Source: Bacteroidales bacterium (GTDB lineage Bacteria; Bacteroidota; Bacteroidia; Bacteroidales; UBA4417). From it: a DNA stretch of 64,000 nucleotides. Positions 48,131 to 63,949 of this stretch are shown here, piece by piece (position 1 is the first letter of the stretch; the number at the start of each line of letters is the position of its first letter). The position numbers and the translations under genes are program-made. Where the stretch lies: NCBI GenBank assembly GCA_038212135.1, contig JBBQUX010000001.1, forward strand, positions 13,734 through 77,733, written 5' to 3'. The notes under the pieces are model-generated. The model was not told the origin of the DNA. It was given only the letters and a program-made list of their open reading frames with translations, and did not search any database.

Positions 48131-49561
48131 ATGAAAAAGCACAGACCCAAATTCATTTTGCTGATGATAGTTCTTTTGCCGGTACTGATGGCATCAGTTA
48201 CATCAGATGAGTATGTAGTATTAAGTTGGAATGATTTAGGCATGCATTGTGCCAATAAAGATTTTTCAACTATGGTAATACTACCACCTTACAACAACCT
48301 GAAAGCGCAGGTAATTAAACGAGGCAATGCAACCACTATGCCGCAGTTAATAACAACCGGTCTCACTGTTACTTATGAAATTCCTGGTAATACATATTCG
48401 GTTGGTAAAACAAATTTCTGGACATATTCGCTAGGTTTGTTTGGCGTTTCTATACCCAATACCGGACTTACCGGTGCCGGATTAACCGGGACGATGGCAA
48501 TGAATACGAATGAATATTTTCAGGATGGTATACCACTTACCCCTTATCAGGATAATAATCTGGTTACAGAATCGCCTTTTCAACTTGCGATGATCAAGGT
48601 GAAAGACGGAGGTGGGAATTTACTCGCACAAACCCAACCAGTAATTCCGGTTTCGAATGAAATTAATTGTGTAAGTGCCGGATGCCATAATAGCGAACAG
48701 GCAATTTTAAATGAACATGAACTGGAAGGTGGTTTTAATCCCAATAACAAACCAGTGAAATGTTCGAGCTGTCACTCCGATAATGCTTTAGGTGCTCCGG
48801 GCGTTCCGGGCTTACCCTCTTTTTCTGAGGTAATCCACAAGAAACACGGCAGCATCACAAATGATTGTTATAAATGCCATCCGGGGCCAAACACTCAATG
48901 CTTTAGGGATATAATGCATACAGGAGGCATGGTTTGCCAGGATTGCCATGGAAATGTTTCACATGTTGGCCAAACTATTCAAAATGGAAGGCAACCTTGG
49001 CTGCAGGAGCCTTCGTGTGGCGAAGCTGCTTGTCATGGTGCTAATTATTCGCCAGAACCAAACAAGTTATACCGTAATTCGAGGGGGCATGCTAATTTGT
49101 ATTGTTCGGCATGTCACGGATCGCCTCATGCTATTGTTCCAACCGAACAGGCAAATGATAACGTTCAGAGCATTGCCGTTCAAGGTTGGGCCGGAACACT
49201 ATCGAAATGCTCGGTATGTCATGGTATTACCCCCAATTTGCCTGGTCCTCACGGGATTATGGGAACCGGTATCATAGAAATAAGCGGGACTGTTCCAAAA
49301 ACCACTCATCTGGATCCTGTTTTTCCTAATCCTGTTAATTCTCAGACCCATATAGGATTAAAGGTAAAAGAAGCCGGAAACATTAAAGTTGAAGTATTTT
49401 CATCAACCGGGAAATACATTGAAACAATTTTCAGCGCTCAGATTACACCCGGTGAATATATAATTGACTTTAATACCGGAAACCTGGCAAACGGAGTTTA
49501 TACCTGCATTATGCTGGCCGGAAAAGCAAAAGACACTAAAAGTTTTATTATCAGCCGATAG
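48131..49561 (+). CDS. multiheme c-type cytochrome (5 x CXXCH plus 2 x CX4CH) with T9SS type A C-terminal sorting domain; paralog of 46554-47843
   Basis: Signal peptide. N-domain colinear with the paralog (WNDLGMHCANKDF..MVILPPYNN). Heme motifs CVSAGCH, CSSCH, CYKCH, CQDCH, CGEAACH, CSACH, CSVCH. The last ~85 aa, FPNPVNSQTHIGLKV...GNIKVEVFSSTGKYIET...ANGVYTCIM...KSFIISR, fit the Por secretion tail pattern. Confidence 0.85.
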   Translation: MKKHRPKFILLMIVLLPVLMASVTSDEYVVLSWNDLGMHCANKDFSTMVILPPYNNLKAQVIKRGNATTMPQLITTGLTVTYEIPGNTYSVGKTNFWTYSLGLFGVSIPNTGLTGAGLTGTMAMNTNEYFQDGIPLTPYQDNNLVTESPFQLAMIKVKDGGGNLLAQTQPVIPVSNEINCVSAGCHNSEQAILNEHELEGGFNPNNKPVKCSSCHSDNALGAPGVPGLPSFSEVIHKKHGSITNDCYKCHPGPNTQCFRDIMHTGGMVCQDCHGNVSHVGQTIQNGRQPWLQEPSCGEAACHGANYSPEPNKLYRNSRGHANLYCSACHGSPHAIVPTEQANDNVQSIAVQGWAGTLSKCSVCHGITPNLPGPHGIMGTGIIEISGTVPKTTHLDPVFPNPVNSQTHIGLKVKEAGNIKVEVFSSTGKYIETIFSAQITPGEYIIDFNTGNLANGVYTCIMLAGKAKDTKSFIISR

Positions 49562-49767: not shown

Positions 49768-50811
49768 TTATGGCATAACAGGAACCACTTTGGCATCAGC
49801 CGGAACTTCACCTGTCAGTGCTTTCATGAATGCTGTTATTTCACTTGTTTGTTCAGGTGTTAATTCCTTATTTAATTGTCCTTTGGCCATTATCTGAATA
49901 GTTTTGTCCATTTCTTTTATACTTCCATCGTGCAGGTATGGCCAGGTTTCGGCTATGTTGCGCAACGAAGGCACTTTAAAGAAGTATTTGTCAGCTTCAG
50001 TTTTAGTTGCAGCCATTTTCCCAAAATCATCTACGGTGCTCCCTGTGAGCTCTTTATGAGTTCCAAATAAGGGGTATTTCTGGAACATGTTTCCACCTAA
50101 CAACGGACCCATATGACATGCCGTGCAGCCTGTTTCTATAAAGGCTTTGCAGCCTTTCAACTCCTGATCGTTAAGAACGCTAAGGTCGCCGCCAAGGAAT
50201 TTGTCGAATTTACTGGGTGTAAGCAATGTGCGTTCAAAAGCAGCAATGGAATTTCTCATGTTTGTGAACGAAACGGGCTGTTTGTCATCCGGGAAGGCGG
50301 CTTCGAACATTTTCTTATACCCTTCATTTTTGGTCAGCCTTGCCATTACTTCTTTTTCATCGGGCATGCTCATTTCAACTGGATTCATAACAGGTCCGCC
50401 AGCCTGTTCTTCCACATCTTTCATCCTTCCATCCCAGAACTGCACGAAATGTAAAGCAGCATTTAGTACGGTTGGCGAATTTCTGCTTCCTAATTTCCCG
50501 TTATCGCCCGGGCTGGTCGGTTTGTTATCAACGCCAAACGTAGCCAGATTGTGACAAGTGTTACAGCTTTCAGTATTGTTTAATGAAAGCCTGTTGTCGT
50601 AATACAAAGTTTTACCAAGCAACACTTTTTCGGTAGTTACTGCATTGCCAGGATTAACGGCTTCGTCAGGTAAAGGCTGAAACAGGTTTTTAGCCAGCAT
50701 AAGCACTGAGTCAGCATTGAGCCCTGAAACCTGATCTTTGCTCTGTTTGTTGTTACATGCAAATGTGAGAACCACAATTGCGGTAATGACCGGAATAAAT
50801 AGATTTTTCAT
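49768..50811 (-). CDS. ccpA: di-heme cytochrome c peroxidase (CCP/MauG family)
   Basis: Start at MKNLFIPV (signal/lipobox-like TFAC). CNTCHNL and CTACHMG heme motifs, FWDGR, and VPSLRNIAETWPYLHDGS, characteristic of bacterial CCP. Confidence 0.9.
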   Translation of the reverse strand: MKNLFIPVITAIVVLTFACNNKQSKDQVSGLNADSVLMLAKNLFQPLPDEAVNPGNAVTTEKVLLGKTLYYDNRLSLNNTESCNTCHNLATFGVDNKPTSPGDNGKLGSRNSPTVLNAALHFVQFWDGRMKDVEEQAGGPVMNPVEMSMPDEKEVMARLTKNEGYKKMFEAAFPDDKQPVSFTNMRNSIAAFERTLLTPSKFDKFLGGDLSVLNDQELKGCKAFIETGCTACHMGPLLGGNMFQKYPLFGTHKELTGSTVDDFGKMAATKTEADKYFFKVPSLRNIAETWPYLHDGSIKEMDKTIQIMAKGQLNKELTPEQTSEITAFMKALTGEVPADAKVVPVMP

Positions 50812-50885
50812 GATGATTTTTAATTGGTTTAAATTAAGTGATATTATTATTTTTTTGAATTGGATATGACAGTTTATCAAAGTTA

Positions 50886-51608
50886 TTAATCATCGTCTTC
50901 ATCCTTCTCTTTACTATTTATCTGGTTTTTCTGTTCCGGATTTTCTGCTTCAGGAGAGATTTTTTGAGTAGTAATTGAGTATGGGACTATTGCCAAAGCA
51001 GCCAGTATGCCTGTCGCAGCAACAATTTTCTGAAATGAATTCAGCTTGATACCTTCTGCATCAATGTTTTTGTAGCCCGTAAAAATAGATAATAATGTTC
51101 CCGCTTTTTTGTTAAAAATAAAATCAACAATGTTACCGAGCAAATGCGCAATCACAAGCCCGATAAGGATATTCACAGCAATCTCGTGGATTTCTTTTAG
51201 TGAATCTTCTGACAAACCGGTTTGAACGAAAGCAAACAGACCTTGTCCTTCCGATGCCAGCAATAAAATTCCTGATACAACGATTATCAGGCTGAAAATT
51301 ATGATCCCCAACATTACGACCGATGCCGCAGGATTATGACCAGGTGACTGACTCTTACTTTCCTTCATATTGGCAGCAAATTTTTTGAGAGAATTCACCC
51401 CGATAGGGAAATCGCTGAACCTTGAGTATTTTGGGCCGACAAAGCCCCATATTATCCTGAAAATGATCAGTATCCCAACCATATATCCAACGGATGAATG
51501 AAAATTCAGCAATTCTTCTTCGCCTGATAAAATGTAAGCGGCAACCATTCCGATTACCAGAAGCCAATGGAAAATCCGTGTTGGCAAACTCCAGATGTAT
51601 GTTTTCAT
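50886..51608 (-). CDS. cytochrome b561 / Ni-Fe-hydrogenase b-type cytochrome family membrane protein
   Basis: 240 aa. PTRIFHWLLVIGMVAAY, SVGYMVGILIIFRIIWGF and HEIAVNILIGLVIAHLLG provide the conserved His pairs in 4 TM helices. Acidic C-terminal tail. Confidence 0.8.
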   Translation of the reverse strand: MKTYIWSLPTRIFHWLLVIGMVAAYILSGEEELLNFHSSVGYMVGILIIFRIIWGFVGPKYSRFSDFPIGVNSLKKFAANMKESKSQSPGHNPAASVVMLGIIIFSLIIVVSGILLLASEGQGLFAFVQTGLSEDSLKEIHEIAVNILIGLVIAHLLGNIVDFIFNKKAGTLLSIFTGYKNIDAEGIKLNSFQKIVAATGILAALAIVPYSITTQKISPEAENPEQKNQINSKEKDEDDD

Positions 51609-51653
51609 AGTTTTTAGAATTAAAGTTTGAGTGTTAATTTTTGATTATATGTT

Positions 51654-52514
51654 TTATTCTTTCCCGGATGGTTCATAATGAATGTGAACCTCACAGCGTT
51701 CAATCCGGCCGCAAATTATTTTTTCGACCTTGTGCGAAATGGCGTGAGCCTCGCTTATGTTCAATTCCGGATCAACATGTATGGTTATATTTACAAATGT
51801 GTCGGCTCCGGCTACCCTTACTTTTAAATCGTGGTAATAACTCACTTCAGGAATGAGTTGAATCATGGAGGAAATTTCATCGCTGAGTGTAAGCGGGCTG
51901 CGGTCGAGAAGTACATCTATCGCTTTTTTACCAAGCCTGTATGATACTGTGAGAACGATTAATGCTACTCCAAGAGCGGCAACCGAATCGGCTGCAAAAA
52001 GGCCGAAATTCGCACAAATCAATCCGATCAGAACAACTACTGAACTCCATATATCAGTGGAAAAATGAAGCGCATCAGCCTCCAGTGCCTGGCTATTGTA
52101 CTTTCGCGCTACTTTATATAAAGCTCTCGAACGTGACACATCAACAATGATTGAAGATATGACTACAATATAACTCCAGATTGTTACTTCAATGTGGATA
52201 TTGCCTGTTAACAAACGGTTTACAGCTTCGTTTACGATCCATACACAGGTAATGATAAGCAATATTGTTTCAAGAAGAGCTGAGAAATTTTCGGTTTTTC
52301 CATGACCAAAGTGATGATGCTTATCAGCCGGCTTGTCAGAAACTCTAACTGTAAAATATGTGATTACAGCAGCAACAAGGTCCAGAGCCGAATGTAGTGC
52401 TTCCGATAAGATACCGAGACTTCCGGTGAGTAAACCGACTATGAGTTTAAACCCGGTTAAAAAGATGGCCGCAAATACTGATATTCCGGCTACTCTCTTT
52501 TTCTCTTTTTCCAT
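51654..52514 (-). CDS. cation diffusion facilitator (CDF) family metal efflux transporter
   Basis: 286 aa. SEALHSALDLVA (TM2) and ALHFSTDIWSS (TM5) CDF motifs, plus a C-terminal cytoplasmic domain. Confidence 0.88.
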   Translation of the reverse strand: MEKEKKRVAGISVFAAIFLTGFKLIVGLLTGSLGILSEALHSALDLVAAVITYFTVRVSDKPADKHHHFGHGKTENFSALLETILLIITCVWIVNEAVNRLLTGNIHIEVTIWSYIVVISSIIVDVSRSRALYKVARKYNSQALEADALHFSTDIWSSVVVLIGLICANFGLFAADSVAALGVALIVLTVSYRLGKKAIDVLLDRSPLTLSDEISSMIQLIPEVSYYHDLKVRVAGADTFVNITIHVDPELNISEAHAISHKVEKIICGRIERCEVHIHYEPSGKE

Positions 52515-52632: not shown

Positions 52633-52932
52633 TTAGCAGGATTGTTTGGGTGGTTGCCAGATGGAAGAGAGGAAATAGCTGAATTCAGGCTGAGCTTTCA
52701 TAAATAAATGCAGGTGGTTAGAAAGGTCAGAGCCAGAAAATATAATAGAACTCTTCTGGAAAAAATGATCGCCAAACGAAATAGTATGGTGATGCGGTCC
52801 GTCAGTATTGCCGGTATGAAAAGGGATATGTGTTGTGTTAATATTTGCATACAAAGAAATACTTTCATCCACACTCATCAGCAGAGCGATCATAACAGCT
52901 AAAACAGCAGCTATATATCTTAATTTCTTCAT
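52633..52932 (-). CDS. small secreted/anchored His-rich hypothetical protein
   Basis: Start at MKKLRYIAAVLAVMIALLM (signal or anchor). His-rich mature part (THIPFHTGNTDGPHHHTISFGDH..NHLHL). First ORF of the reverse-strand CDF/cyt b/CCP gene string. Coding status is not certain. Confidence 0.45.
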   Translation of the reverse strand: MKKLRYIAAVLAVMIALLMSVDESISLYANINTTHIPFHTGNTDGPHHHTISFGDHFFQKSSIIFSGSDLSNHLHLFMKAQPEFSYFLSSIWQPPKQSC

Positions 52933-53216
52933 ATCAGCAGCAAAAATACAAAAACAATCTGGTTTGATCATTCTCCCAACTTTATTCAAAGTCGCAAGCT
53001 TTGGATGAGTGAGCCTGAAAATTGCAATATAGTTATACATATTTACGTTCTTAAATACGTGAATAGGTTTAATGTTTTCTGATGATTAAGTTTGAATCTA
53101 AAGCATTGCTAAATAGTTGATTAAATAAAATTATGATTAAAGCAGCAAGCGACCGATTTCTACAAATCTAGTATCCCTTTTATGGTTTTCCTGCTGCTCT
53201 ATGTGCAAAAAAATAA

Positions 53217-53237
53217 AATTTAGAATGTTTCTAAATT
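53217..53237. promoter_or_regulatory. perfect 21-bp palindrome AATTTAGAA-TGT-TTCTAAATT (candidate operator)
   Basis: 9-bp perfect arms, 35 nt upstream of the TACCTTTG -7 box of the multiheme operon, in the 403-bp divergent intergenic region. Confidence 0.35.
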
Positions 53238-53271
53238 AGAACAGGTCAGTGACGAGGTCTTCCAAATCCGT

Positions 53272-53279
53272 TACCTTTG
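53272..53279 (+). promoter_or_regulatory. Bacteroidota -7 promoter box (TAnnTTTG)
   Basis: TACCTTTG lies 57 nt upstream of the ATG at 53336. Confidence 0.4.
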
Positions 53280-53335
53280 ATTTCTTGTATTACCCGATTT
53301 TCAGCTGTATAACTGAATAAAAAAGCTAGAAGAAC

Positions 53336-54205
53336 ATGAATAAAGCAGTTCACAGAATTTACCTGGCAGGATTATCACTTATAGTATTAATTGCATTTGC
53401 TGCAATTACATTAAAAGGATACCAATATTATAAAATCAGTCTCGAAGAACGTTTTTTTCATCCGGATCATACCATCCTTAAACCAAGTGGTTTTTGGGGT
53501 CATGGAATGGGAATAGTTGGCTCCATTTTTATGATCCTTGGTGTAACCCTGTATATGGCCCGTAAGAGGTACAGAGTATTCTCGCGGTTGGGCTTTTTAA
53601 AACACTGGCTCGAATTTCATATTTTTTTGTGTACGTTGGGTCCTATCCTTGTACTTTTTCATACCGCCTTTAAATTCGGTGGCATAGTTGCAATCAGTTT
53701 CTGGAGCATGGTAGCTGTTTTCCTGAGTGGAATTATCGGAAGGTTTATCTATATTCAGATTCCGCGAACAATCGAAGGACGCGAATTAAGTCTTTCTGAA
53801 GTTAGAGGTATGAAAGGTGATATCGGTAACACATTAAGCCATTCGATTCAATTGGATGAAGGAAGCCGGAATGTAATTGCGGATTCAATAAAGGTAAAAC
53901 CAGAACTTTATCATAGTAATTTCTTTGTACGCACTTTTAGGAAATATGTTGACGACAGAAAGTCACTTGGTAGTGTAAAGACTGTTTTGAAAAAAAATAA
54001 TCTTTCCAAATCGCAACGGATTGAAGTGTTGAACCTTGTAGAAAATGAAATTTCACTCAACAGGAGGATTGAACGGCTTGTATTAATGCAGAATTTATTT
54101 AAATACTGGCACGTGGCACATTTGCCATTTGCCCTGGTGATGCTTGTAATTATGGTAATACATGTTGCAGTTACCATTGTATTTGGTTATAAATGGATAT
54201 TCTAG
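53336..54205 (+). CDS. polytopic membrane protein with paired conserved-looking His residues (unknown family)
   Basis: 289 aa. Four N-terminal TM helices ([23 protein letters not shown]), a soluble loop of about 110 aa, and a final TM segment [23 protein letters not shown]. First gene of the operon. Confidence 0.75.
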
Positions 54206-55542
54206 TTATGGATGAGATGCTTTTAGAGAAGGTGGTTATTTATTCCCTGGTAATTCTGTTTTGCCTGGTTATTGTATTTATTTATTTGCGCAAGCAGAAA
54301 CGGGAATCGAAAAAAGTGGAGGAAAAAATTGTTATTGCAAAACGGGATGGAATGTACGAGCCTGTATCGTTGCACCCGGTAATTGACGAAGGCAGTTGTA
54401 TACGAACTGGTGCATGCATTGCTGCCTGTCCGGAAAAGGATATTCTGGGTATAAAAGATGGTAAAGCAACAACGATAAATGCTTCTAAATGTATCGGACA
54501 TGGGGCTTGTTTCCATGCCTGTCCAACAGAAGCTATAACACTGGTAATAGGTACCGAAAAGCGTGGCGTTGAACTGCCTCATATTAATCAGAACTTCGAA
54601 ACCAATGTTGACGGAATTTATATTGCAGGTGAGTTAGGAGGAATGGGTCTGATAAAAAATGCCGTTGAACAGGGCAGGCAAGCCGTCGAAAATCTGGCAA
54701 AAACCCTTCGCAAAGCGCACCAGGCAACTTACGACCTCGTAATTATAGGTGCTGGTCCTGCAGGAATTTCTGCTTCGCTCACTGCAAAAAAACATAACCT
54801 CAACTTTCTGACTCTTGAACAGGATACCCTGGGAGGAACTGTTTTTACTTTCCCCAGGCAAAAAATTGTAATGACTTCAGCCATGGATCTCCCTCTGTAT
54901 GGCAAAGTGAAATTATTCGAAACCAGTAAACCGGCACTACTTGATTTATGGAATTCAGCACTTACAAAGAATGGCATTAGTATTCAAGAAAACACAAAAG
55001 TAGAATCGATAACAGCCGAAAACGGGCATTTTAATATCGAAACACTTACGGGACAGCATATTACAGCAAAAACCGTTTTGCTGGCCATCGGGCGAAGAGG
55101 TACGCCGCGTAAACTTGGTGTTGAAGGAGAAATGCAGGAAAAAGTAGCTTACCGGCTCCTGGAACCGGAAGATATAAGCGGGAAAAACATTATGGTTGTT
55201 GGCGGAGGTGATTCGGCCATTGAGTCCGCTTTGCTGCTGGCTGATCATAATAATGTTACTCTTTCCTACCGCAGTGAAGCTTTTAACCGAATAAAGCAGA
55301 AAAATAGCGAAAAGATAAAAGATGCCATAATTTCGGGCAAGGTGAAAGTGCTTTTCAACACAAATCCGGTTCGCATTAACAAGGATTCAGTTGTGCTTAC
55401 AACCAGCATGGAAGAGGAGGAACTTTATATTGAAAATGACCTGGTTTATATTTTTGCCGGCGGTGAACTCCCGATTCAATTCCTGGAAAAGGCTGGTATC
55501 CATATCACTAAAAAGTTCGGGGAAGCAATAATGAAACATTGA
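54193..55542 (+). CDS. membrane-anchored 2x[4Fe-4S] ferredoxin-domain / FAD-NAD(P)-binding (thioredoxin-reductase-like) oxidoreductase
   Basis: N-terminal TM segment ([19 protein letters not shown]). Cluster motifs [12 protein letters not shown] and [12 protein letters not shown]. Dinucleotide folds [13 protein letters not shown] and [13 protein letters not shown]. Its start overlaps the upstream gene by 13 nt. Confidence 0.85.
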
Positions 55543-55568
55543 AATTGATATTTTAGGCAAAACTGCAC

Positions 55569-57170
55569 ATGACATTCAGAATTAAACATATTGTAAGTTT
55601 ATTTGCACTGGCAGCTTTTCTCTGCTTTTCAGCAAAAGCTCAGATATCGCCGGGTGAACTTGCCAAAGTGCATTCGCATCTCGAAGGCATTTCGAACTGC
55701 ACAAAATGTCATACGCTGGGCGATAAGGTATCTAATGACAAATGCCTGGCCTGCCATACCGAAATAAAAACCCGCATTGATCAAAAAAGAGGCTACCACT
55801 CATCCCCACAGGTTAAAGGCAAACAATGCGCCAGCTGCCATAATGATCACCATGGGCTGACTTTTCAGATCATACGATTCGACAAGGATAAATTTATTCA
55901 CGATCTGGCAGGATACAAGTTAACTGGTGCTCACAGCAGGAAAAAATGTGAGGATTGTCACAAGGCTGCTTTTATTTCCGATGTAAAAATCAAAGCAAAA
56001 AAGTTTACTTACCTCGGGCTAAAAACTGAATGTCTGGCCTGTCACGCTGATTATCACCAAAAAACACTTTCGACTAATTGCGCCGAATGCCACACGGATG
56101 AAAAGTTTAAGCCGGCATCAAAATTCGATCATAACAAGTCTAAATTTAAATTGGCAGGTAAGCACCAGGATATTGCCTGCGCCGAATGCCACAAGACTTC
56201 GGTAAGGAATGGACAGAAATTCCAGGAATTCAAAGGGGTAAAAGCCACCAACTGTACTAACTGCCACAAAGATGTTCATGACAATAAGTTTGGGCAGAAT
56301 TGTGCTGAATGTCATAATAATGAGTCGTTTACTGTTGTAGGAGGCGTGAAGAATTTCGATCACAGCAAGGCTGATTTTAAACTGGAAGGCAAACATGTGA
56401 ATGTAGCCTGTAAAAAATGTCATAAAGTAAAACTAACAACACCTTTATTCTTTAAACGCTGCACCGAATGTCACACTGATTATCATGGCAAAGAATTCGC
56501 GAAAAACGGCGTTTCTCCCGATTGTTCTGCCTGCCACAATGAGAAGGGTTTTACTGAATTTTCATATACCATCGAGCAGCACAACGCCGGTGTTTTCCCA
56601 TTAAAAGGAGCTCATGTTGCAACTCCATGTTTCGCATGTCACAAAAAAGAGGAGAAATGGAAATTTAAAGAAATAGGTAAAAACTGCAAAGATTGCCACC
56701 TCGACATTCACAATACATTTATCAGCAGCAAGTATTATCCTGAAGCAAATTGTGAATCATGCCACAATCTGAACCGCTGGAGTGCAGTGGAGTTTGACCA
56801 TAAAAAAACACAGTTTGAACTTGAAGGTGCTCATACGAAGCAAACCTGCCGCGATTGTCATTTCAATAAAGAAAAGACGGGACACGCAAATCAAAAATTT
56901 TCAGGATTAGCTACCAACTGCACCAATTGTCATACAGATGTGCATTTCAAACAGTTTGAAGACAATGGAGTCACGGATTGTAAAAAATGCCATAATTCCG
57001 ATTCATTTAAACCCGCTTCAAAATTCGATCACGGCAAAGCGCGATTTTTGCTGGATGGAAAACACGTGAATGTGGCTTGCATAAAGTGCCACAAAGAAGT
57101 AACAGAACAAGGCGTAACTTTTGTATTGTACAAAACAAATAAAACGAAATGCGAAGACTGTCATCTATAA
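55569..57170 (+). CDS. 20-heme c-type cytochrome (cytochrome c3/c7-like, doubled-CXXCH architecture)
   Basis: Signal peptide (..CFSAKAQ). 20 CXXCH motifs in 533 aa, counted by hand. Six copies of the F(D/I)Hx(K)xxFxLxG(K/A)Hx4-5CxxCH module. Confidence 0.9.
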   Translation: MTFRIKHIVSLFALAAFLCFSAKAQISPGELAKVHSHLEGISNCTKCHTLGDKVSNDKCLACHTEIKTRIDQKRGYHSSPQVKGKQCASCHNDHHGLTFQIIRFDKDKFIHDLAGYKLTGAHSRKKCEDCHKAAFISDVKIKAKKFTYLGLKTECLACHADYHQKTLSTNCAECHTDEKFKPASKFDHNKSKFKLAGKHQDIACAECHKTSVRNGQKFQEFKGVKATNCTNCHKDVHDNKFGQNCAECHNNESFTVVGGVKNFDHSKADFKLEGKHVNVACKKCHKVKLTTPLFFKRCTECHTDYHGKEFAKNGVSPDCSACHNEKGFTEFSYTIEQHNAGVFPLKGAHVATPCFACHKKEEKWKFKEIGKNCKDCHLDIHNTFISSKYYPEANCESCHNLNRWSAVEFDHKKTQFELEGAHTKQTCRDCHFNKEKTGHANQKFSGLATNCTNCHTDVHFKQFEDNGVTDCKKCHNSDSFKPASKFDHGKARFLLDGKHVNVACIKCHKEVTEQGVTFVLYKTNKTKCEDCHL

Positions 57171-60010
57171 TCCTGTCGTTGGTACTTTCATTAAGTCTGG
57201 TGGCCCAGAAATCGCCTCATGGTGATACTTTCAAAGCCAATTGCGACGATTGCCATAAAACCGATGGCTGGAAGGTTGATTTTAAAACAGTTTCCTTTGA
57301 TCATAATGGAACAAAATTCCCTCTTGTTGGTCAGCACCAGGCTGTGAATTGTAAGCAATGCCATACTTCACCCGAATTTGCCAAAGCACAAACGGAATGC
57401 AATTCGTGCCATACAGATATTCACGAACAAACGGTTGGTAATGAATGTGCCAGGTGTCATACTCCAAATTCCTGGATGGTAACTAATATAACCCAACTTC
57501 ATCAACAGAGCCGTTTCCCGCTTATTGGCCCTCATACGGTTGCTGATTGCCGGGATTGTCATAAAAATCTTTTATCGGCTACAACTCCGGCATCCCCATC
57601 AGCTTCACTTCTCCGGTTCGATCCTTTAGGTGTCGAATGTTATGATTGTCATAAAGAGGATTATACTACTGCAAAAGAACCTGATCATGTAGCAGGAGAT
57701 TATCCGACAAACTGTATCGAATGTCATACTATTAATTCATTTGAATGGAAAGGAGCAGGCATCAACCATAATTTCTTTCCGCTTGAGGGAGGGCATAACA
57801 ATATTGATTGTAAAAAATGTCATACTTCCGGAACCTATGCAACTATACCTGCTGAGTGTAATTCCTGTCACCAGCCTGATTATACGTCAACTCAAAATCC
57901 CAATCATACTTCACTCAATTTTTCGAATGACTGCAGCAAATGTCATTCCCTAAATCCCGGTTGGAAACCAGCGGAATATTTAGACCATGATGCGCAGTCA
58001 TTTCCAATATATTCGGGAAAACACAAAGGAGAATGGGAAAATTGTTCCGATTGCCATACAAATCCGTCAAATTATGCTCAGTTCACATGTACTGATTGCC
58101 ACGAGCATAACAAAGGTGATACGGACGAACAACATGGAGATGTTAGTGGTTACGAATACAACAGCATGGCCTGCTTTGCCTGTCACCCGACAGGCGATAG
58201 AGAAGGAAGTTTCGATCATAATAAATCAAGCTTCCCCTTAACCGGGGCTCACACCACAACGGCTTGTGCCGATTGTCATACAACGGGATACGCAGGCACT
58301 CCGAACGTGTGTGCAAGCTGCCACATAAATAATTATAATCAATCTACTAATCCAAATCACAAAGCACCCGGCAGTAAGTTTACCGAGGATTGTGCCGCCT
58401 GCCATACTACCAACACCGGATGGAAACCTGCTACTTACCCTGTGCATTCGAACCTTGAGGGAGCTCACGTTCCTATCGCCAACGATTGTGCAGCCTGCCA
58501 TAACGGAAGTTATACAACCTTGCCCTCAACTTGCTACGATTGCCACACTACAGATTATACGCAATCAAATAATCCTTCTCATGCTAGTGCTCAGTTCCCG
58601 ACAACCTGCGCTGATTGCCACACTCAGGCAGCATGGAAACCCGCAACTTTCAATCATGATGGTCAGTACTTCCCAATTTATTCAGGGAAACATAACGGGG
58701 AATGGGATAATTGTTCTGATTGTCATACAAATCCAGCGGATTATAAAGTTTATACCTGTACTTCTGCCTGTCACCTGAAACCAAAAATGGATAGTGAACA
58801 TCAGGGCGTTGGTGGTTATCTATACAACAGCCCCTCCTGCCTGGGATGCCATCCGGATGGAACAGCACAAGGTTTTGACCATAATGCTGCCGGGTTCCCT
58901 TTAACCGGCGGGCATGCGACAGTATTATGCATAAATTGTCATACCAGTGGATATGCCGGAACCTCGCCTGTTTGTGCGGGCTGTCATACTCCTGCTTTTA
59001 ACCAATCTGTTAATCCAAATCATACTTCGCTTGGAATACCTACCGATTGTGCAGCCTGTCATACAACCAATCCGGGCTGGAGTCCGGCAACTTTTGCAAC
59101 GCACAACAATTATTATGTTATTGCCGGTGCTCATGTGCCTATTGCAAATGAATGTGCCACCTGCCATAATGGAAATTATATTAATTCGCCTAATACTTGC
59201 TTTGGTTGTCATGCTTCATCCTACAACCAGACCACTAATCCAAATCATGCTGCAGCGCAATATGCTACTACCTGTGAAGATTGTCACACGCAAAGTGCCT
59301 GGTCGCCATCAACTTTTAACCATAATACCACATATCCGCTAACAGGAGCACATTCAGCAATCGCCAGTAATTGTTCGCAGTGTCATCCGAACGGATATTC
59401 CAATACTCCTAATACATGTGCAGGATGCCACCAAAACAATTATAACCAGGCAACGAATCCGAATCATATTTCTCTTGGAGTGTCCAACGATTGTGCTGTT
59501 TGCCATACAACAAACCCTGGCTGGCAACCTGCTGCCTTTCCGGTTCATAACAATTACTATGTTTTAGCCGGGGCTCACGTATCTGCTGATTGTGCCGATT
59601 GCCACAATGGTAATTATAACACCACACCCAATACATGTGCAGGGTGCCATATGAATGACTATAACCAGACTAATGATCCGAACCATGCTTCGGCACAGTT
59701 CCCGACAAGTTGTGAAGATTGTCATACGCAGACTGCATGGCAACCTTCAACTTTCAATCATGACGGACAATATTTCCCGATTTATTCAGGTAAACATAAT
59801 GGTGTGTGGAATACCTGTTCGGATTGCCATCCTAACTCAGCAAACTATGCAGTATATACCTGCACTACCTCGTGCCATCCGCAGAATTCCACTAACAATG
59901 CGCATAACGGGGTAAGTGGGTACCAGTATCTGAGTAGTGCCTGCCTGAATTGTCACCCTAATGGAAATGGGGATAAGAAGATCTTTATTAATGATATAAG
60001 GAATAATTAA
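57149..60010 (+). CDS. giant multiheme c-type cytochrome (35 x CXXCH plus 2 x CX3CH in 953 aa)
   Basis: Signal peptide MRRLSSIILSLVLSLSLVAQ. Heme motifs counted by hand. Three-fold repeated module (..FPIYSGKH.G.W..CSDCH.N...Y...TCT..CH......H.GV.GY.Y.S..C..CHP.G). Eight copies of CxxCH-x3-[YF]-x5-P-x-H. The start overlaps the 20-heme gene by 22 nt. Confidence 0.9.
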   Translation: MRRLSSIILSLVLSLSLVAQKSPHGDTFKANCDDCHKTDGWKVDFKTVSFDHNGTKFPLVGQHQAVNCKQCHTSPEFAKAQTECNSCHTDIHEQTVGNECARCHTPNSWMVTNITQLHQQSRFPLIGPHTVADCRDCHKNLLSATTPASPSASLLRFDPLGVECYDCHKEDYTTAKEPDHVAGDYPTNCIECHTINSFEWKGAGINHNFFPLEGGHNNIDCKKCHTSGTYATIPAECNSCHQPDYTSTQNPNHTSLNFSNDCSKCHSLNPGWKPAEYLDHDAQSFPIYSGKHKGEWENCSDCHTNPSNYAQFTCTDCHEHNKGDTDEQHGDVSGYEYNSMACFACHPTGDREGSFDHNKSSFPLTGAHTTTACADCHTTGYAGTPNVCASCHINNYNQSTNPNHKAPGSKFTEDCAACHTTNTGWKPATYPVHSNLEGAHVPIANDCAACHNGSYTTLPSTCYDCHTTDYTQSNNPSHASAQFPTTCADCHTQAAWKPATFNHDGQYFPIYSGKHNGEWDNCSDCHTNPADYKVYTCTSACHLKPKMDSEHQGVGGYLYNSPSCLGCHPDGTAQGFDHNAAGFPLTGGHATVLCINCHTSGYAGTSPVCAGCHTPAFNQSVNPNHTSLGIPTDCAACHTTNPGWSPATFATHNNYYVIAGAHVPIANECATCHNGNYINSPNTCFGCHASSYNQTTNPNHAAAQYATTCEDCHTQSAWSPSTFNHNTTYPLTGAHSAIASNCSQCHPNGYSNTPNTCAGCHQNNYNQATNPNHISLGVSNDCAVCHTTNPGWQPAAFPVHNNYYVLAGAHVSADCADCHNGNYNTTPNTCAGCHMNDYNQTNDPNHASAQFPTSCEDCHTQTAWQPSTFNHDGQYFPIYSGKHNGVWNTCSDCHPNSANYAVYTCTTSCHPQNSTNNAHNGVSGYQYLSSACLNCHPNGNGDKKIFINDIRNN

Positions 60011-60020
60011 AGTCTTGATT

Positions 60021-61643
60021 ATGAAACTTATACTTCCTGTATTTTTATTATTGTTAGTTGGTTCTGGCCTGAAAGGACAAACAACCGGCGGAACTAAAGA
60101 AGGGACTGTATCGTATATCACTTCGCTGAGTGTTTATGTGAAATTTGAAACAACTGAAAGTATCTCAGTAGGGGATACCCTGTTTACTTTTAAGGATTCA
60201 AAAATGGTTCCTGCCCTCATAGTAAAGGAACTGTCTTCTATTTCATGCGTTTGTACCCCATTGGTATCAATAAAATTATCATTGAATGATAAAATACAAT
60301 CCCGGCCAAAAATTATAAAACCTGTCGAAAATCAGAATGTTGTGGTTGTGCCTGTCGTGAAGCCAGTGGAGGTGATAACAGATACAGTGGCGTCAAAAAA
60401 AGTAACTCCTGCTGAACCAAAGCAAAGTATCAGCGGACGAATTTCAGTTTCTTCGTATTCGAATTTTTCGAATGTCTCGGATTTTTCCCAACGCATGAGA
60501 TACACTTTTTCGATGAATGCGCAAAATATCAGTGATTCGAAGTTCTCGGCCGAAACTTACATTTCATTTGTGCACAAAATGAACGAATGGAGCGAAGTAC
60601 AGGAAGATATTTTCAATGGATTAAAGATTTACAGCCTGTCGGTCAATTATGCTTTTAACAAGAATAACACTATCTGGTTTGGCCGGAAGATAAATCCACG
60701 TCTTTCGAATGTTGGAGCAATTGACGGGCTTCAGTACGAAACCAAATTCAAATCCTTTACAGCTGGAGCCTTTTTCGGGTCAAGGCCTGATTATATGAAC
60801 TATAGTTTTAATGCCAGTTTGTTGCAATACGGCGGATATTTTAGCCACGATTATTTGAATAAAAAGGGTGGAAGTGCGCAAACTTCTTTGGCTTTTGTTG
60901 AGCAAAAAAATAACGGCAATACCGACCGGAGATTTGCTTATTTACATCATTCCAATTCGCTGCTGCCTAAGCTTTATTTCTTCGGATCTATCGAATTTGA
61001 CCTTTACAACAAAGTACTGAATTCACAGGATAGTTCTTACACCCGGGACTATACGCCCAATCTTTCGAACATATATTTTTCGCTCCGGTACAAAGTGATT
61101 AAGCAATTATCAATATCTGTATCATACAGTGAAAGGCAGAATATCATTTATTATGAAACCTACAAAAGCATCGTTGATCAGTTGCTCGAAGAAGCCACAA
61201 TGAGGGGTTTCATGTTCCAGGTAAACTACCGCCCGATAAAAAACATGACTATCGGTGCAAATGCCGGCTACCGTGTTAGCAAAAAAGATCCTGGGCCATC
61301 AAAAAACCTATATACTTACCTCACATACAGCAATGTGCCCTGGATTAATGCTTCCGCAACTATTTCGGCCACCTTGTTGCAAACAAGCTATCTTTCGGGA
61401 AACATATATAGTTTCGGCCTTTCACGTGACCTGGTGCCGGGCAAGTTATACGGCGGAGTTAGTTACAGACACGTAAACTATAAATTCCAGAGCGCAGAGA
61501 CTCCCTTAATTCAGAATATGGGTGAGATGAACCTGACCTGGCGAATTATGAAGAAACTTTCGCTTTCAGCTAATTATGAAGGCACCTTTGAAAAGGGAAG
61601 AAACTACGATCGTATCTATATTAATCTTACGCAACGTTTCTAA
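60021..61643 (+). CDS. predicted outer-membrane beta-barrel protein (unknown family)
   Basis: Signal peptide MKLILPVFLLLLVGSGLKGQ. N-terminal soluble domain of about 130 aa, then a long alternating hydrophobic/aromatic strand pattern with frequent Y/F/G/N/S. The terminal residue is Phe (...YINLTQRF), the classic OMP C-terminal signature. Starts 10 nt after the giant cytochrome gene. Confidence 0.65.
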   Translation: MKLILPVFLLLLVGSGLKGQTTGGTKEGTVSYITSLSVYVKFETTESISVGDTLFTFKDSKMVPALIVKELSSISCVCTPLVSIKLSLNDKIQSRPKIIKPVENQNVVVVPVVKPVEVITDTVASKKVTPAEPKQSISGRISVSSYSNFSNVSDFSQRMRYTFSMNAQNISDSKFSAETYISFVHKMNEWSEVQEDIFNGLKIYSLSVNYAFNKNNTIWFGRKINPRLSNVGAIDGLQYETKFKSFTAGAFFGSRPDYMNYSFNASLLQYGGYFSHDYLNKKGGSAQTSLAFVEQKNNGNTDRRFAYLHHSNSLLPKLYFFGSIEFDLYNKVLNSQDSSYTRDYTPNLSNIYFSLRYKVIKQLSISVSYSERQNIIYYETYKSIVDQLLEEATMRGFMFQVNYRPIKNMTIGANAGYRVSKKDPGPSKNLYTYLTYSNVPWINASATISATLLQTSYLSGNIYSFGLSRDLVPGKLYGGVSYRHVNYKFQSAETPLIQNMGEMNLTWRIMKKLSLSANYEGTFEKGRNYDRIYINLTQRF

Positions 61644-61700
61644 AGACTGCTAATTACCTGAAAAGAGTCAATTTTAGTTTAAATCTCAAAATACATTTTT

Positions 61701-62435
61701 ATGAAACCCAAAACAGTGGTCATTGCCATTGCTATTATGGTAGGTGTAATCCTGATAGCAGTTCCTTTTATCAACAGTAAGAAGGATAGAAAGGCTCTTG
61801 ATTTGCCTCCGGGTACTCATGAAGTAACCATTGCAGAAGTGATTCAAACTAATAAATATACCTATTTTCTTGTAGAAGAAAACGACAGTGAATACTGGAT
61901 TGCTGTAACCAAACGCGAAGCTAGCAAAGGTGATGTGATTTATTATTCCAATCCGTTGGAAATGAATAATTTCGTGAGTAAAGAGTTGGGCCGCACATTC
62001 CCCACCATATTCTTTGTGCAGGATGTAAGTGAAAAGCCATTTCCTGATGAAAATACTGCATCGCCGCAGATGGCACAAAAGAAACCGGAAATCGTAAAAA
62101 TGGATAATGTAAAAATAGATCCGGTTAAGGGAGGTATATCCATTTCAGACTTGTACGATGGGCAGGCTAAATATGCTGGTAAAACAGTTATTATTCGCGG
62201 GGTCGTTGTGCGGTATAACCATATGGTAATGGGGAAAAACTGGGTACATATTCAGGATGGTACTGAATCCTCCGGTCAGTTCGATCTTGCAATTACAACG
62301 AAGGACAGCCTTGCCGTAGGGAATACAGTTACTTTCACCGGAGCAATCAGCCTTAACAAAGATTTTGGCTCAGGATATTTCTATAAGGTAATTATGGAGG
62401 ATGCGAAAGCTTCTGATATAATTTCAATTGAATAA
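61701..62435 (+). CDS. membrane-anchored hypothetical protein with two similar halves (possible OB-fold-like domains)
   Basis: N-terminal TM segment (VVIAIAIMVGVILIAVPF). Two segments share a layout (..TIAEVIQTNKYTYFLVEENDSEYWIAV..KGDVI vs ..SISDLYDGQAKYAGKTVIIRGVVV..NWVHIQDGT...AITT...VGNTVTFTG). Last gene of the operon. Confidence 0.7.
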   Translation: MKPKTVVIAIAIMVGVILIAVPFINSKKDRKALDLPPGTHEVTIAEVIQTNKYTYFLVEENDSEYWIAVTKREASKGDVIYYSNPLEMNNFVSKELGRTFPTIFFVQDVSEKPFPDENTASPQMAQKKPEIVKMDNVKIDPVKGGISISDLYDGQAKYAGKTVIIRGVVVRYNHMVMGKNWVHIQDGTESSGQFDLAITTKDSLAVGNTVTFTGAISLNKDFGSGYFYKVIMEDAKASDIISIE

Positions 62436-62773
62436 ATAATCCGAATGTAGTTTTCCTAAGTGTTTTCAGACTTTTGAATATGTATATTTTTGTTGACGGT
62501 TCTGATATGCCAATAATTCCGGATACTGATATGTTGTTTGTTGAAACACAAAAAGAATGTGACCCGGCTTTCTGTAAATGTTTTTTGGACATTGACTTTT
62601 ATGTTGAAAGCCTTGTTATGCGTTCGTTGTTTATTTTTTTCGTGTCTGAGTCGCGATTATTTTTTTAATGAAGGCTGGAAGTTCAATTTTGTTTTGGTCT
62701 GCAATTATTCGTATAGCATCATAATATTTTACCTTGTCTGCTTTCCAATGTAAGTCGAGCCGCCTAATTTCTT

Positions 62774-63142
62774 TCATGGCAATTGCATACATAGCATTTT
62801 CCTTGACCAAGGTTCATAAAGCTTGTTTTTGAAAACTTTAGGGACAGAAATTCTCCCTTCAACTCTGTTAAGACGGAGTTTTGTTGTGTCGCCGGATTTA
62901 TATGCAGCAATTGATTTTCCTCCGTTTGATTTTACTTTGAAAGTTTCTAAAGGCATTCCCGCATCACGTACATCTCGCACAACTCGTGGAGGATGGTTGT
63001 ATCCGTATCTGTTTTCAAGGTCTTCGGTTGTAATAAAACCGTGTTTAAGAATGTGATCAACTACTATTTTCGCCCTTTTGTTTGTGATCGAAGTTATATA
63101 GGCTAAAAATTCTTTCGGATAAGTAGCTTTGTTTTTACTCAT
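62774..63142 (-). CDS. hypothetical protein with wHTH-like N-terminus; possible truncated restriction endonuclease partner of the adjacent methyltransferase remnant
   Basis: Start at MSKNKATYPKEF, where the ATG overlaps the methyltransferase stop (ATGAGTAA). The block HGFITTEDLENRYGYNHPPRVVRDVRDAGMPLETFKVKS..GKSIAAYK resembles N-termini of HNH-type endonucleases linked to methyltransferases (from memory). The ORF stops where the catalytic Cys/His region would be expected. Confidence 0.45.
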   Translation of the reverse strand: MSKNKATYPKEFLAYITSITNKRAKIVVDHILKHGFITTEDLENRYGYNHPPRVVRDVRDAGMPLETFKVKSNGGKSIAAYKSGDTTKLRLNRVEGRISVPKVFKNKLYEPWSRKMLCMQLP

Positions 63143-63949
63143 AGTTTGCAAAGAGTTCCGTTTGGTATGTCTGTTTTTCTGGTTCTATATTCGTTGCAAC
63201 TTTAGCAACCAAAGCTGGTGAAAGATATATTACTTCATATGTAATTTCATTTCTGCTAAGGAGTGTGGCCTGTGAAGAGCGGCCTGCATTTATTTCTATT
63301 TTCTTCAAATTCAGATTTTCGGGTAACGGATTACCATAAGTCTTGTCGCCTGTTCTGCCATCAAAGCTTAAAATGTAAGGGACATTTTTGTGATTTAGTT
63401 CAAAAAGTGAAACTACAAAACTTTCAAATTCGATATTGCCAGAGTAATTAAACCCGCCATTTAAGCCTGTTCCTTTGATAGGGTGGATCCATATAAACCA
63501 GATCATTTGGTGTAGCTAATTCAAGAATATTCAAATAATCTGCCGAATAAACTTCGGTTTTACTTTTTAGCAATTGTGAACTCTCAAAATATCGTCTCTC
63601 ATCATTTGTGGACTTCGGCCAAGTCTTCTTTTGTCTGGGCTTTGATTAAAGCCGCCTTTTGAATTATAACGAACCGCTGCCTTTACGCACTTTGCTATCA
63701 GAAATAATAAATACTCGGGATTTTTTCATCCCAAAGTTGTGTCAATGGTTCATTGATGTCATTTATTATGAAGTGATTTGCTTTAAAATAATAGGCAGAC
63801 GAAATAGTAATTGCTGCTGAACCTGCAAATGGTTCTATCAGGCGGTCAAAGTTGACTGGAAAGTAACGCAAAATCTGGTCTGCCAGGTTCCGCTTGCTAC
63901 CTTGATATGGAATAGGATGTGGTAATTTCATCAAGTCAGTTTTAAACAA
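63135..63949 (-). pseudogene. Dam-type (D12 class) N6-adenine DNA methyltransferase, disrupted by at least three frameshifts
   Basis: Four reverse-strand segments lie in different frames. (1) MKLPHPIPYQGSKRNLA...IEPFAGSAA (SAM motif), ending at a stop. (2) VRYNSKGGFNQSPDKRR..., ending at a stop. (3) LLKSKTEVYSADYLNILELATPNDLVYMDPPYQ (DPPY motif), ending at a stop. (4) KGTGLNGGFNYSG...PYILSFDGRTG...YEVIYLSP. Confidence 0.7.

Follow-up and report, generated by a model that had tools for sequence, protein, structure and literature searches.

The 64,000-nucleotide window analysed here (positions 13,734 to 77,733 of the forward strand of contig JBBQUX010000001.1, assembly GCA_038212135.1, from a Bacteroidales bacterium of the lineage UBA4417) encodes a 953-aa cytochrome with 37 heme-binding motifs, in a compact operon with an inner-membrane protein, an iron-sulfur (Fe-S) flavoprotein, a 20-heme cytochrome and an outer-membrane beta-barrel. 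On balance, we think that this 37-heme protein, whose length varies among relatives, serves as the outward heme wire in a conduit for extracellular electron transfer, with NAD(P)H as a possible source of electrons. The argument draws on the regular triheme architecture of the protein, the conservation of its candidate heme ligands, the synteny of the five genes across phyla and the predicted barrel, and on independent assemblies of the same sequence.

Results

Heme-binding sites and triheme modules of the 37-heme cytochrome

A regular-expression count of the 953-aa protein returned 35 CxxCH motifs and two Cx3CH variants (CTSACH at aa 537 and CTTSCH at aa 905), the same tally as in the initial annotation, a model's reading of the DNA. 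No Cx4CH or CxxCK sites were found by the same count. Its 74 Cys are just what 37 motifs require (2 x 37), and it contains 75 His. There are 25.8 residues for each heme, and apart from Cys and His the composition is mostly N, T, A, S, G and P. Outside the motifs, 37 of the 38 His are kept in at least 90% of 40 homologues, with H320 alone variable, and none of the 5 Met is conserved in the same comparison. The candidate sixth ligands amount to one His per heme, that is three per module plus H24 of the mature N-terminus SPHG. Since 37 conserved non-motif His match 37 hemes and no Met is conserved, all 37 hemes are probably bis-His-ligated. The N-terminus is a type-I signal peptide that ends in ...VAQ, ahead of (K)SPHG, and the last CxxCH sits 17 residues before the C-terminus. 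The protein has neither a lipobox nor a C-terminal domain of the type IX secretion system (T9SS), and we therefore rejected it as a candidate lipoprotein or T9SS cargo; a lipobox is present in 5 of 120 homologues.

From heme 2 onward the spacing between hemes repeats as 15, 25-28 and 30-37 residues. When cut at every third heme, the protein resolves into heme 1 followed by 12 triheme modules, all of them alignable (64-89 aa, typically 72-75), in the order n-AQB-AQB-AAAQB. Eight modules are of type A, with a PxH after the middle heme; three are of type B, in which the middle heme is followed by ...H-x-GV-x-GY-x-Y; and one is the N-terminal n module, whose middle heme, CNSCHTDIH, has the same form as throughout the neighbouring 20-heme protein. 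We use Q for those A-type modules that carry the tail FPIYSGKH and always stand directly before a B module. The Cx3CH variant occupies the middle heme in two of the three B modules, and this placement is general: among homologues, 43 of 44 occurrences fall at the middle heme of B modules, affecting about 8% of them.

This tiling accounts for both repeats that had been described from the DNA. The motif CxxCH-x3-[YF]-x5-P-x-H, said to occur eight times, is present in exactly 8 copies (aa 164, 237, 388, 462, 609, 684, 757 and 830) and is the signature of the A modules. The three-fold block of about 65 aa, with Cx3CH in two of its copies, was also recovered (aa 278-372, 503-593 and 871-953) and consists of the FPIYSGKH tail of the preceding module together with a B module. 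The two repeats are therefore two module types of one triheme tiling rather than separate features. Growth of the protein by tandem module duplication, as the initial annotation proposed, is well supported: repeat detection by module alignment gave the 12 alignable units, the duplicated unit is the triheme module, and orthologues differ by whole modules.

Each module would supply three proximal His, from CxxCH or Cx3CH, and three distal His. The distal His after the middle heme would come from PxH in A modules, TDIH in n and E/A-H in B, and the other two would lie in an F-x-H...G-x-H tail. Followed by CxxCH, this tail resembles the N-terminal His pair of cytochrome c7 (PpcA).

A repetitive gene of metagenomic origin could be an assembly artefact, with mis-joined, collapsed or expanded repeats, or a decaying pseudogene. 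We give this explanation next to no weight. The DNA copies of the repeats are only 60-78% identical, and for this reason they read as old duplications. An unrelated freshwater metagenome contains a 14,134-bp contig (depth 44.5) that is collinear with the window over 55569-61643, with 11 substitutions and no gaps; a sediment metagenome contributes a 4,490-bp contig that matches 57445-61643 without a single difference. Because these two independent assemblies, from other studies, are collinear without gaps, and the repeats are so diverged, an artefact of assembly was ruled out. Likewise, neither length (951-954 aa) nor motif count (35+2) changes in orthologues that are 72-79% identical, and every one of the 74 Cys is paired within a motif.

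A large family of variable cytochromes

A database search with the 953-aa protein, in which up to 8,000 candidates were scored, gave more than 5,400 homologues at E<=1e-5. The best 120 belong to Saprospiraceae, Bacteroidales, Lewinellaceae, Chitinophagales, Ignavibacteriales and Melioribacteraceae; almost every one is labelled 'hypothetical', and a few bear generic cytochrome names or names that are clearly wrong. Heme counts among them are mostly 37, 46, 49, 52, 55, 58, 61, 64 or 67, equal to 1+3n, at 25.0 ± 0.3 residues per heme, with 8-17 PxH motifs and 1-7 FPIYSGKH motifs. The 953-aa protein is among the shortest of these 120. The suggestion that its heme count rivals the largest known multiheme proteins thus did not hold, as 37 hemes lie at the small end of a family that reaches 67, and cytochromes with more than 100 heme motifs have already been reported (PMC11495043).

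Curated models place the protein only broadly. Its Pfam matches are generic (Cytochrome_C7 at 111.6 bits, c3_2, class III and MtrC/F domain II/IV), no NCBIfam model reached its cut-off, and a PDB sequence search with the whole protein gave no match at E<=0.01. A profile built from the 12 modules matched HmcA (E 2e-12), MtrA, MtrC, NrfB, nine-heme cytochrome c and c3 in the PDB, and c7 weakly; these matches are weak and of generic class III type, and NrfA-type nitrite reductases are among them. Because the profile matches HmcA, MtrA, MtrC, NrfB, c3 and c7, the modules can be assigned to the class III (c3/c7) superfamily, apparently as members with no close solved relative. The impression that the PxH spacing was unfamiliar stands insofar as no curated family or structure matched; it fails in that the spacing marks a very large multi-phylum family, members of which are in print as undescribed. 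Saprospiraceae are reported to carry 'undescribed cytochromes' with very many hemes (PMC11495043), and a porin-multiheme cytochrome cluster of '61 + 20 heme' is described from a Lentimicrobium metagenome-assembled genome (MAG) that became enriched solely in the presence of conductive carbon; this cluster is said to lack synteny to any characterised porin-cytochrome complex (PCC) (PMC13013709).

The five-gene operon

The operon runs in the order inner-membrane protein, flavoprotein, 20-heme cytochrome, 37-heme cytochrome and outer-membrane barrel (Table 1). The genes are tightly packed: the flavoprotein gene overlaps the inner-membrane protein gene by 13 bp, the 37-heme gene overlaps the 20-heme gene by 22 bp, and the gaps measure 4-57 bp. 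The two cytochrome genes are probably translationally coupled. A scan of 52900-62900 for promoters and terminators gave the same counts as shuffled sequence, using a sigma-70 consensus that is unsuited to Bacteroidota.

The inner-membrane protein carries HWLEFH-x13-H and YWHVAH-x13-H (two Wx3Hx13H motifs) and LSGIIG (SGxxG). In the numbering of the equal-length homologue P0121 these are W91-x3-H95-x13-H109, S131-G-I-I-G135 and W258-x3-H262-x13-H276, and they are kept at equivalent positions in nearly all of 102 full-length representatives of a family that numbers 2,716 representatives (50%-identity clusters) at E<=1e-3. The two Hx13H pairs, on two transmembrane helices, provide four candidate heme-ligating His. 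Pfam gave no hit above threshold for this protein; among 16 family members, sub-threshold matches were found to DUF4405 in 15 (best 1.6e-5), to Ferric_reduct PF01794 in 8 (best E 3.6e-4) and to Ni_hydr_CYTB in 3.

In the flavoprotein, an N-terminal transmembrane helix leads into the stretch RKQKRESKK; after it come two ferredoxin-type motifs and then a pyridine-nucleotide oxidoreductase domain of the FAD/NAD(P)-binding kind (Pfam Pyr_redox_3 at 1.6e-40, Pyr_redox_2, and Fer4_10 with other Fer4 families; the NCBIfam YpdA-like model scored 153 bits, under its cut-off). Since the helix is followed by this positive patch, the soluble part can be placed in the cytoplasm, with the ferredoxin domain adjoining the membrane. 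In the sequence, both FAD and NAD(P) glycine motifs are present and a redox-active CxxC is absent. In the Fe-S motifs CxxTxxCxxxCP (aa 69-80) and CxxHxxCxxxCP (aa 100-111) the second Cys is replaced. The His of the second motif is kept in 125 of 126 flavoprotein orthologues across phyla; the replaced position of the first motif is T or S in Bacteroidota-type clusters and C in most Acidobacteriota and Gemmatimonadota. This pattern suggests that the exit cluster may be a His-ligated [4Fe-4S] or a [3Fe-4S] cluster.

The 20-heme cytochrome comprises six triheme modules plus two hemes, with middle hemes of the form CxxCH-x-D-[IVY]-H, and matches Pfam Cytochrome_C7 at 92.7 bits; it is presumed to be the periplasmic or barrel-inserted subunit. 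The barrel gene probably has its true start at an ATG two codons downstream of the position in Table 1, and its product has a signal peptide and ends in ...LTQRF. In its AlphaFold2 model (pLDDT 72, pTM 0.54), aa 29-95 fold into a small beta domain, aa 100-133 are a disordered linker rich in Pro, Val and Lys, and aa 138-541 make up a barrel of about 22 strands. Foldseek matched this model to large outer-membrane barrels only (FimD, OprD/Occ, AlgE and PfeA). Neither Pfam nor NCBIfam gave a hit for the protein, and its more than 1,700 homologues are all 'hypothetical'.

Conservation of the cluster

Relatives of the inner-membrane protein numbered at least 566 among the matches to species-representative genomes, and the best 80 were used to define Bacteroidales loci. 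These 80 are 62-81% identical to the query and all come from Bacteroidales-type MAGs (Lentimicrobiaceae, Marinilabiliales, Prolixibacteraceae and others). The window can accordingly be assigned to this group, its host being a Lentimicrobiaceae-like bacterium of freshwater or sediment. The order and strand of the five genes are kept in 80 of 80 loci wherever the contig is long enough, and the inner-membrane protein and the flavoprotein are syntenic in all of them.

The two cytochromes evolve differently in length. The first has 20 hemes in 53 of 62 syntenic loci, and 20 or 23 across phyla. The second has 13, 16, 19, 22, 25, 28, 31, 34, 37, 40, 46, 49 or 55 hemes, with a few counts off this series. 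In the module strings of more than 60 syntenic orthologues we find one grammar, heme 1 + n + (A*QB)+, always with B last and with nAQB (13 hemes) as the minimum; the N-terminal part and the first A-Q-B block of the 953-aa protein are equivalent to this minimal core of the shortest orthologues. The closest relatives (L007 and L009) have one extra AQB block, and so 46 rather than 37 hemes.

Beyond Bacteroidales, the cluster occurs in Ignavibacteriales, Melioribacteraceae, Calditrichota, Rhodothermales, Balneolaceae, Acidobacteriota, Gemmatimonadota, Fibrobacterota and Chlorobiota, with the flavoprotein gene sometimes at the opposite end. The PxH motif is confined to the second cytochrome and is found across most phyla with the cluster, except in Rhodothermales-type versions and in the Myxococcota loci. 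In Rhodothermales and Balneolaceae (L082-L093) the second cytochrome has 13-25 hemes and lacks PxH, and the flavoprotein gene lies at the far end. For this reason the A-module form, whose ligand loop is longer by 9 residues, seems to be derived and restricted to part of the family. In the Myxococcota loci only the inner-membrane protein and a neighbouring cytochrome were seen, with no PxH and with no flavoprotein within 8 kb. A degenerate high-GC DNA pattern retrieved 80 true loci of inner-membrane protein homologues, of which one was labelled Bordetella, one Deltaproteobacteria and no other was given a proteobacterial label; a single high-GC homologue used as query led to Rhodothermales and Ignavibacteria, not to Proteobacteria.

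A cultured carrier is Emticicia oligotrophica DSM 17448, in which the cluster lies on the 100-kb plasmid pEMTOL02 (NC_018749.1, 78197-90781; L104), directly downstream of a fused ResB/CcsA cytochrome c maturation gene. Its genes are annotated as ccsA, a membrane protein, an NAD(P)-binding protein, two 'cytochrome c3 family proteins' with 23 and 40 hemes, a hypothetical protein (the barrel) and a GW-domain protein. Because a complete copy is plasmid-borne, the conduit may be horizontally mobile. More distant homologues of the inner-membrane protein, at 21-27% identity, occur on plasmids of Qipengyuania citrea, Alteromonas macleodii, Methylophaga pinxianii and Legionella sp. (L105-L108). There the gene lies, as part of a trio, between that of an approximately 640-aa FAD_binding_6 + NAD_binding_1 + 2Fe-2S (Fer2) protein and that of a 7-heme cytochrome c3-like protein, with no barrel, inside copper/heavy-metal resistance or hydrogenase islands. 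Since these trios carry a different flavoprotein, the pairing of an NAD(P)H/Fe-S protein, this inner-membrane protein and a periplasmic multiheme cytochrome is a recurrent one.

Table 1. Features of the operon, subdivisions of the 37-heme cytochrome gene and the adjacent downstream gene, in window coordinates.
Feature	Coordinates	Strand	Description or basis
Inner-membrane protein, 289 aa, about 5 transmembrane helices, diheme cytochrome b probable	53336..54205	+	Motifs
Membrane-anchored Fe-S flavoprotein, 449 aa	54193..55542	+	Pfam, synteny
20-heme cytochrome c, 533 aa, signal peptide, Lys-rich, pI 8.9	55569..57170	+	20 CxxCH
37-heme cytochrome c	57149..60010	+	953 aa, ATG start
Signal peptide, heme 1 with F-x-H / G-x-H tail, and n module (hemes 2-4)	57149..57547	+	
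First A-Q-B block (hemes 5-13)	57548..58264	+	
Second A-Q-B block (hemes 14-22)	58265..58927	+	Cx3CH (CTSACH) in B at nt 58757-58774
Terminal A-A-A-Q-B block (hemes 23-37)	58928..60007	+	Cx3CH (CTTSCH) in B at nt 59861-59878
Outer-membrane beta-barrel, 542 aa	60015..61643	+	AlphaFold2, Foldseek
244-aa protein, N-terminal membrane anchor or signal	61701..62435	+	Weak Pfam GW match, 2.6e-4

Other genes of the window

The 244-aa GW/SH3b-like protein is encoded downstream or divergently upstream of the cluster in many Bacteroidales, and also in Emticicia. Divergently upstream of the operon, at 49768-52514 (-), lie genes for a di-heme cytochrome c peroxidase (CCP/MauG), a cytochrome b561 (Ni_hydr_CYTB) and a cation-diffusion-facilitator (CDF) cation-efflux protein; some or all of these adjoin the cluster in several close relatives, and all three do so in L004, L007, L009 and L036. 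This CDF gene is the second of the window, the other one being located at 45164-46081 (+). Between the latter and a gene for a protein with a T9SS C-terminal sorting domain at 48131-49561 (+) stands a second multiheme cytochrome gene, at 46497-47843 (+), whose 448-aa product has 8 CxxCH and a possible lipoprotein-like N-terminus (...FFLCFSCK).

Farther away, 9196-13986 (-) encodes a 1,596-aa Ig/PKD-repeat protein with a CHU_C T9SS sorting domain, and 20530-22086 (+) a GldM that is probably part of a gldKLMN-type block. On account of these two genes, the genome can be said to have a type IX secretion system, for which the 37-heme protein lacks a sorting signal. Past the operon, at 62774-63949 (-), three short open reading frames look like fragments of restriction-modification genes; that at 63698-63949 begins, by eye, like a DNA adenine methyltransferase.

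Discussion

A proposed conduit from the cytoplasm to the cell exterior

The five proteins can be arranged into one electron path. Electrons would start from cytoplasmic NAD(P)H and enter the FAD and the two Fe-S clusters of the membrane-anchored flavoprotein, to be passed to two b hemes of the ferric-reductase-like inner-membrane protein. From here the invariant 20-heme cytochrome would carry them across the periplasm and into the barrel of about 22 strands, and the variable 37-heme protein would continue the chain on the outer face, by analogy with MtrCAB and PCC3. Once its signal peptide is cleaved, this protein could hold 37 covalently bound c hemes in one continuous chain some tens of nanometres long. 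The terminal acceptors would be insoluble or of high molecular weight, such as Fe/Mn oxides, humics, conductive particles or partner cells, and the length of the outer wire may have been tuned over evolution by gain and loss of whole triheme modules. We place the 20-heme protein in the periplasm and the variable one outside because the length of a periplasmic component should be constrained, while that of an outer one need not be. This parallels PCC3, in which the periplasmic subunit is fixed at 21-27 hemes and the outer one ranges over 10-35 (Hoover et al., 2023; PMC10734462).

Several points weigh against this arrangement. A type-I signal peptide alone gives no evident route to the surface in a Bacteroidota, though the genome encodes T9SS parts. 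The family of the variable cytochrome is large, spans phyla and has been noticed in print, but it is known from sequence alone, and no RNA sequencing run holding the 37-heme gene was found. The AlphaFold2 model of the 953-aa protein, made from a 40-sequence alignment, has a pLDDT of 55 and a pTM of 0.24, and Foldseek found no match for it in the PDB; at such low confidence, the continuity and length of a heme chain and the assignment of ligands are not readable from the model, and candidate ligands were taken from conservation instead. The long heme wire that the initial annotation had envisaged is plausible from the 25.8 aa per heme, the apparent bis-His pattern and the c7/c3-like modules. 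At the input end, the flavoprotein could equally serve elsewhere, for example as the reductase of a cytoplasmic substrate, and the inner-membrane protein could exchange electrons with quinones, as proposed by He et al. (2017; PMC5566968). Finally, the PCC3 prototypes (Sideroxydans lithotrophicus ES-1 and Leptothrix cholodnii SP-6) enter the comparison by published description only.

Food for a different interpretation is the Sec/SPI signal itself, which comes with no lipobox or T9SS signal. Both cytochromes might remain in the periplasm, where they would store electrons as a capacitor or fill the space as a wire, the barrel being only an anchor or the exit for the 20-heme protein. The 37-heme protein is a triheme-module polymer like GSU1996 (PMC10138318), and a storage role has been speculated in the literature for such proteins, e.g. 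Geobacter GSU1996 and GSU2210. Nonetheless, the width of the periplasm is fixed, and the heme number of this protein is free to vary from 13 to 67 while it is the 20-heme cytochrome that stays invariant. Moreover, its gene lies immediately beside the barrel gene, its translation is probably coupled with that of the 20-heme gene, and both PCC3 and Mtr offer precedents for a second, outer cytochrome. A purely periplasmic role is thus unlikely in our view, but deserves to be kept in mind. The same conduit might also run inward, bringing electrons to the inner membrane from Fe(II), reduced humics, cathodes or syntrophic partners. Bis-His heme chains have no intrinsic direction, Mtr/Mto conduits are reversible (PMC10734462), and PCC3 first came to light in Fe(II) oxidisers, for which an inward flow of electrons was modelled (PMC5566968). 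However, the partner in this cluster is an NAD(P)-type flavoprotein, and the reduction of NAD(P)+ from donors at the level of Fe(II) would be uphill without energy input; in addition, the hosts (Lentimicrobiaceae, other Bacteroidales and Ignavibacteria) are mostly anaerobic organotrophs or fermenters. We regard uptake as having a rather small chance of being the main function. Many multiheme cytochromes are catalytic, and the weak profile matches in the PDB include NrfA-type nitrite reductases, so that an enzyme acting on a soluble substrate (nitrite, sulfite, hydroxylamine or a metal ion) was also considered. It was set aside as very improbable: every heme has a conserved candidate sixth-ligand His, 37 for 37, there is no CxxCK and no non-heme domain, and 25.8 residues per heme leave no room for an active-site pocket.

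Input of electrons and wider meaning

If the 37-heme protein is an outward wire, the next question regards its source of electrons. The cluster always encodes an NAD(P)-type Fe-S flavoprotein, and for this reason a quinol dehydrogenase like CymA, ImcH or CbcL is an improbable entry point. Two different NAD(P)H/Fe-S proteins are coupled to one family of membrane proteins, which suggests that flavoprotein and inner-membrane protein could together form a split, NOX-like transmembrane electron exporter; we hold this to be a serious possibility, at slightly less than even chances. The most extended version of the idea, which we put forward as tentative and as the less probable of the two, is that the five genes suffice for an entire wire leading from NAD(P)H in the cytoplasm to the outside without recourse to the quinone pool. 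Its input would be a split NOX (flavoprotein, His-ligated Fe-S cluster and diheme-b membrane protein), its 20 + (1+3n) bis-His c hemes would pass through a barrel of about 22 strands, and the length of the outer part would follow from gain and loss of modules under n(A*QB)+.

If the outward wire is real, extracellular electron transfer would be encoded in hundreds of Bacteroidales species, as well as in numerous Acidobacteriota and Gemmatimonadota of lake, sediment, soil and wastewater origin, with related parts of the cluster in Myxococcota. These groups are not usually counted as electroactive, and their inclusion would alter estimates of iron, manganese and humic reduction, or of the electrons fed to methanogens via conductive particles. 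Should the quinone pool indeed be bypassed, fermentative or organotrophic Bacteroidota, Ignavibacteriota, Acidobacteriota and Gemmatimonadota would have a non-respiratory extracellular electron sink, a Gram-negative counterpart of the flavin-based extracellular electron transfer of Firmicutes. The obligatory Fe-S/NAD(P) flavoprotein would in any case point to an input route unlike the quinol dehydrogenases of Shewanella and Geobacter. Moreover, the natural series from 13 to 67 hemes and its triheme grammar offer a set for relating heme-wire length to conductance, and for designing protein wires whose length is chosen in advance. With Emticicia oligotrophica DSM 17448 as a cultured carrier, the function of the conduit is accessible to experiments.

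Comparison with known systems

The Mtr-type conduits (MtrCAB/MtoAB of Shewanella and Sideroxydans, and the OmaB-OmbB-OmcB/ExtABCD type of Geobacter) share the principle of a barrel-inserted periplasmic cytochrome that contacts an outer one, and the module profile matches MtrA and MtrC chains weakly. Membership in these families was rejected, as the NCBIfam scores stay far under the cut-offs: TIGR03508 (DmsE/MtrA) gives 27.4 bits against 192 for the 953-aa protein, while TIGR03507 (OmcA/MtrC) gives no listed hit for it and 24.3 bits against 209 for the 20-heme protein. MtrC is a lipoprotein with Greek-key domains, the 37-heme protein has neither feature, and heme numbers are 2-6 times larger here. 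In contrast to both Mtr and Geobacter conduits, the inner-membrane partner is a b-type protein resembling a ferric-reductase domain, together with a flavoprotein, and not CymA, ImcH or CbcL.

This input module recalls NOX/FRE proteins in its two pairs of His, 13 residues apart on two transmembrane helices, in the sub-threshold PF01794 matches mentioned above and in its genetic coupling to an NAD(P)H flavoprotein, which among the distant relatives on proteobacterial plasmids even has the same FAD_binding_6/NAD_binding_1 domains. It differs in that the parts are separate polypeptides, in that the flavoprotein is TrxR/YpdA-like with two ferredoxin-type clusters instead of FNR-like, in the lack of a Pfam hit above threshold and in its acceptor, which would be a cytochrome chain and not O2 or chelated Fe(III).

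The 'nanowires of hemes' of Geobacter, GSU1996 and GSU0592 (12 hemes) and GSU2210 (27 hemes), are polymers of c7-type triheme domains (PMC10138318). Likewise, the 37-heme protein strings tandem triheme domains of about 70-80 aa in one polypeptide, with 12 modules and a Cytochrome_C7 match, and a linear heme array such as that of the Geobacter polymers would be expected here by analogy. Unlike GSU1996, which has one His-Met heme per domain, the 37-heme protein has no conserved Met and is apparently bis-His throughout; furthermore, the Geobacter proteins are periplasmic and have no co-encoded barrel. The module profile reached only E 0.003-0.14 against c7 and the chains 3ouq/3oue. The family model TIGR04257 nanowire_3heme (cut-off 40 bits) gave no hit at E<=0.01 for the 953-aa protein and 21.1 bits for the 20-heme protein, and membership in this family was rejected because the cut-off is not reached.

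The closest likeness in gene content is to PCC3, predicted in Proteobacteria to combine a porin and an inner-membrane protein with two cytochromes, one periplasmic (median 21 hemes) and one extracellular (median 34) (He et al., 2017; PMC5566968). The PCC3 barrel is predicted to have 22 strands in Leptothrix, and our cluster has a barrel gene beside its cytochrome genes, with about 22 strands. PCC3 periplasmic cytochromes contain repeats of about 66 aa for 21-24 hemes, a triheme size, and we count the 20 hemes of our first cytochrome as comparable to their approximately 21 (21-27). The extracellular PCC3 cytochrome is repeat-rich, rich in T/S/A/G and low in aa per heme; the second cytochrome here has 37 hemes (13-55 among orthologues), 25.8 aa per heme, an abundance of small residues and 12 repeats. 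The inner-membrane protein of PCC3/PCC4, which He et al. (2017) likened to a ferric-reductase domain, has about 300 aa and 5 transmembrane helices, with SGxxG on the fourth and Wx3Hx13H on the third and fifth, and ours has 289 aa, about 5 helices, SGxxG and two Wx3Hx13H. The cluster thus agrees with the porin-cytochrome architecture of PCC3, with a flavoprotein added, and PCC3 is itself a prediction. There are also differences. PCC3 was described from Alpha-, Beta- and Gammaproteobacteria, whereas the present cluster is found in Bacteroidota and other non-proteobacterial phyla; the Fe-S/NAD(P) flavoprotein is constant in the Bacteroidales-type cluster and is not named as a PCC3 component in the passages of He et al. 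(2017) considered here; and heme numbers are quantised here as 1+3n, unlike the counts in Gallionellaceae (10-18 and 26-35; PMC10734462). The predicted layout of PCC3 and the principle of the triheme polymer were already known; what is new here is a putative PCC3-like conduit with an extra flavoprotein and a triheme grammar.

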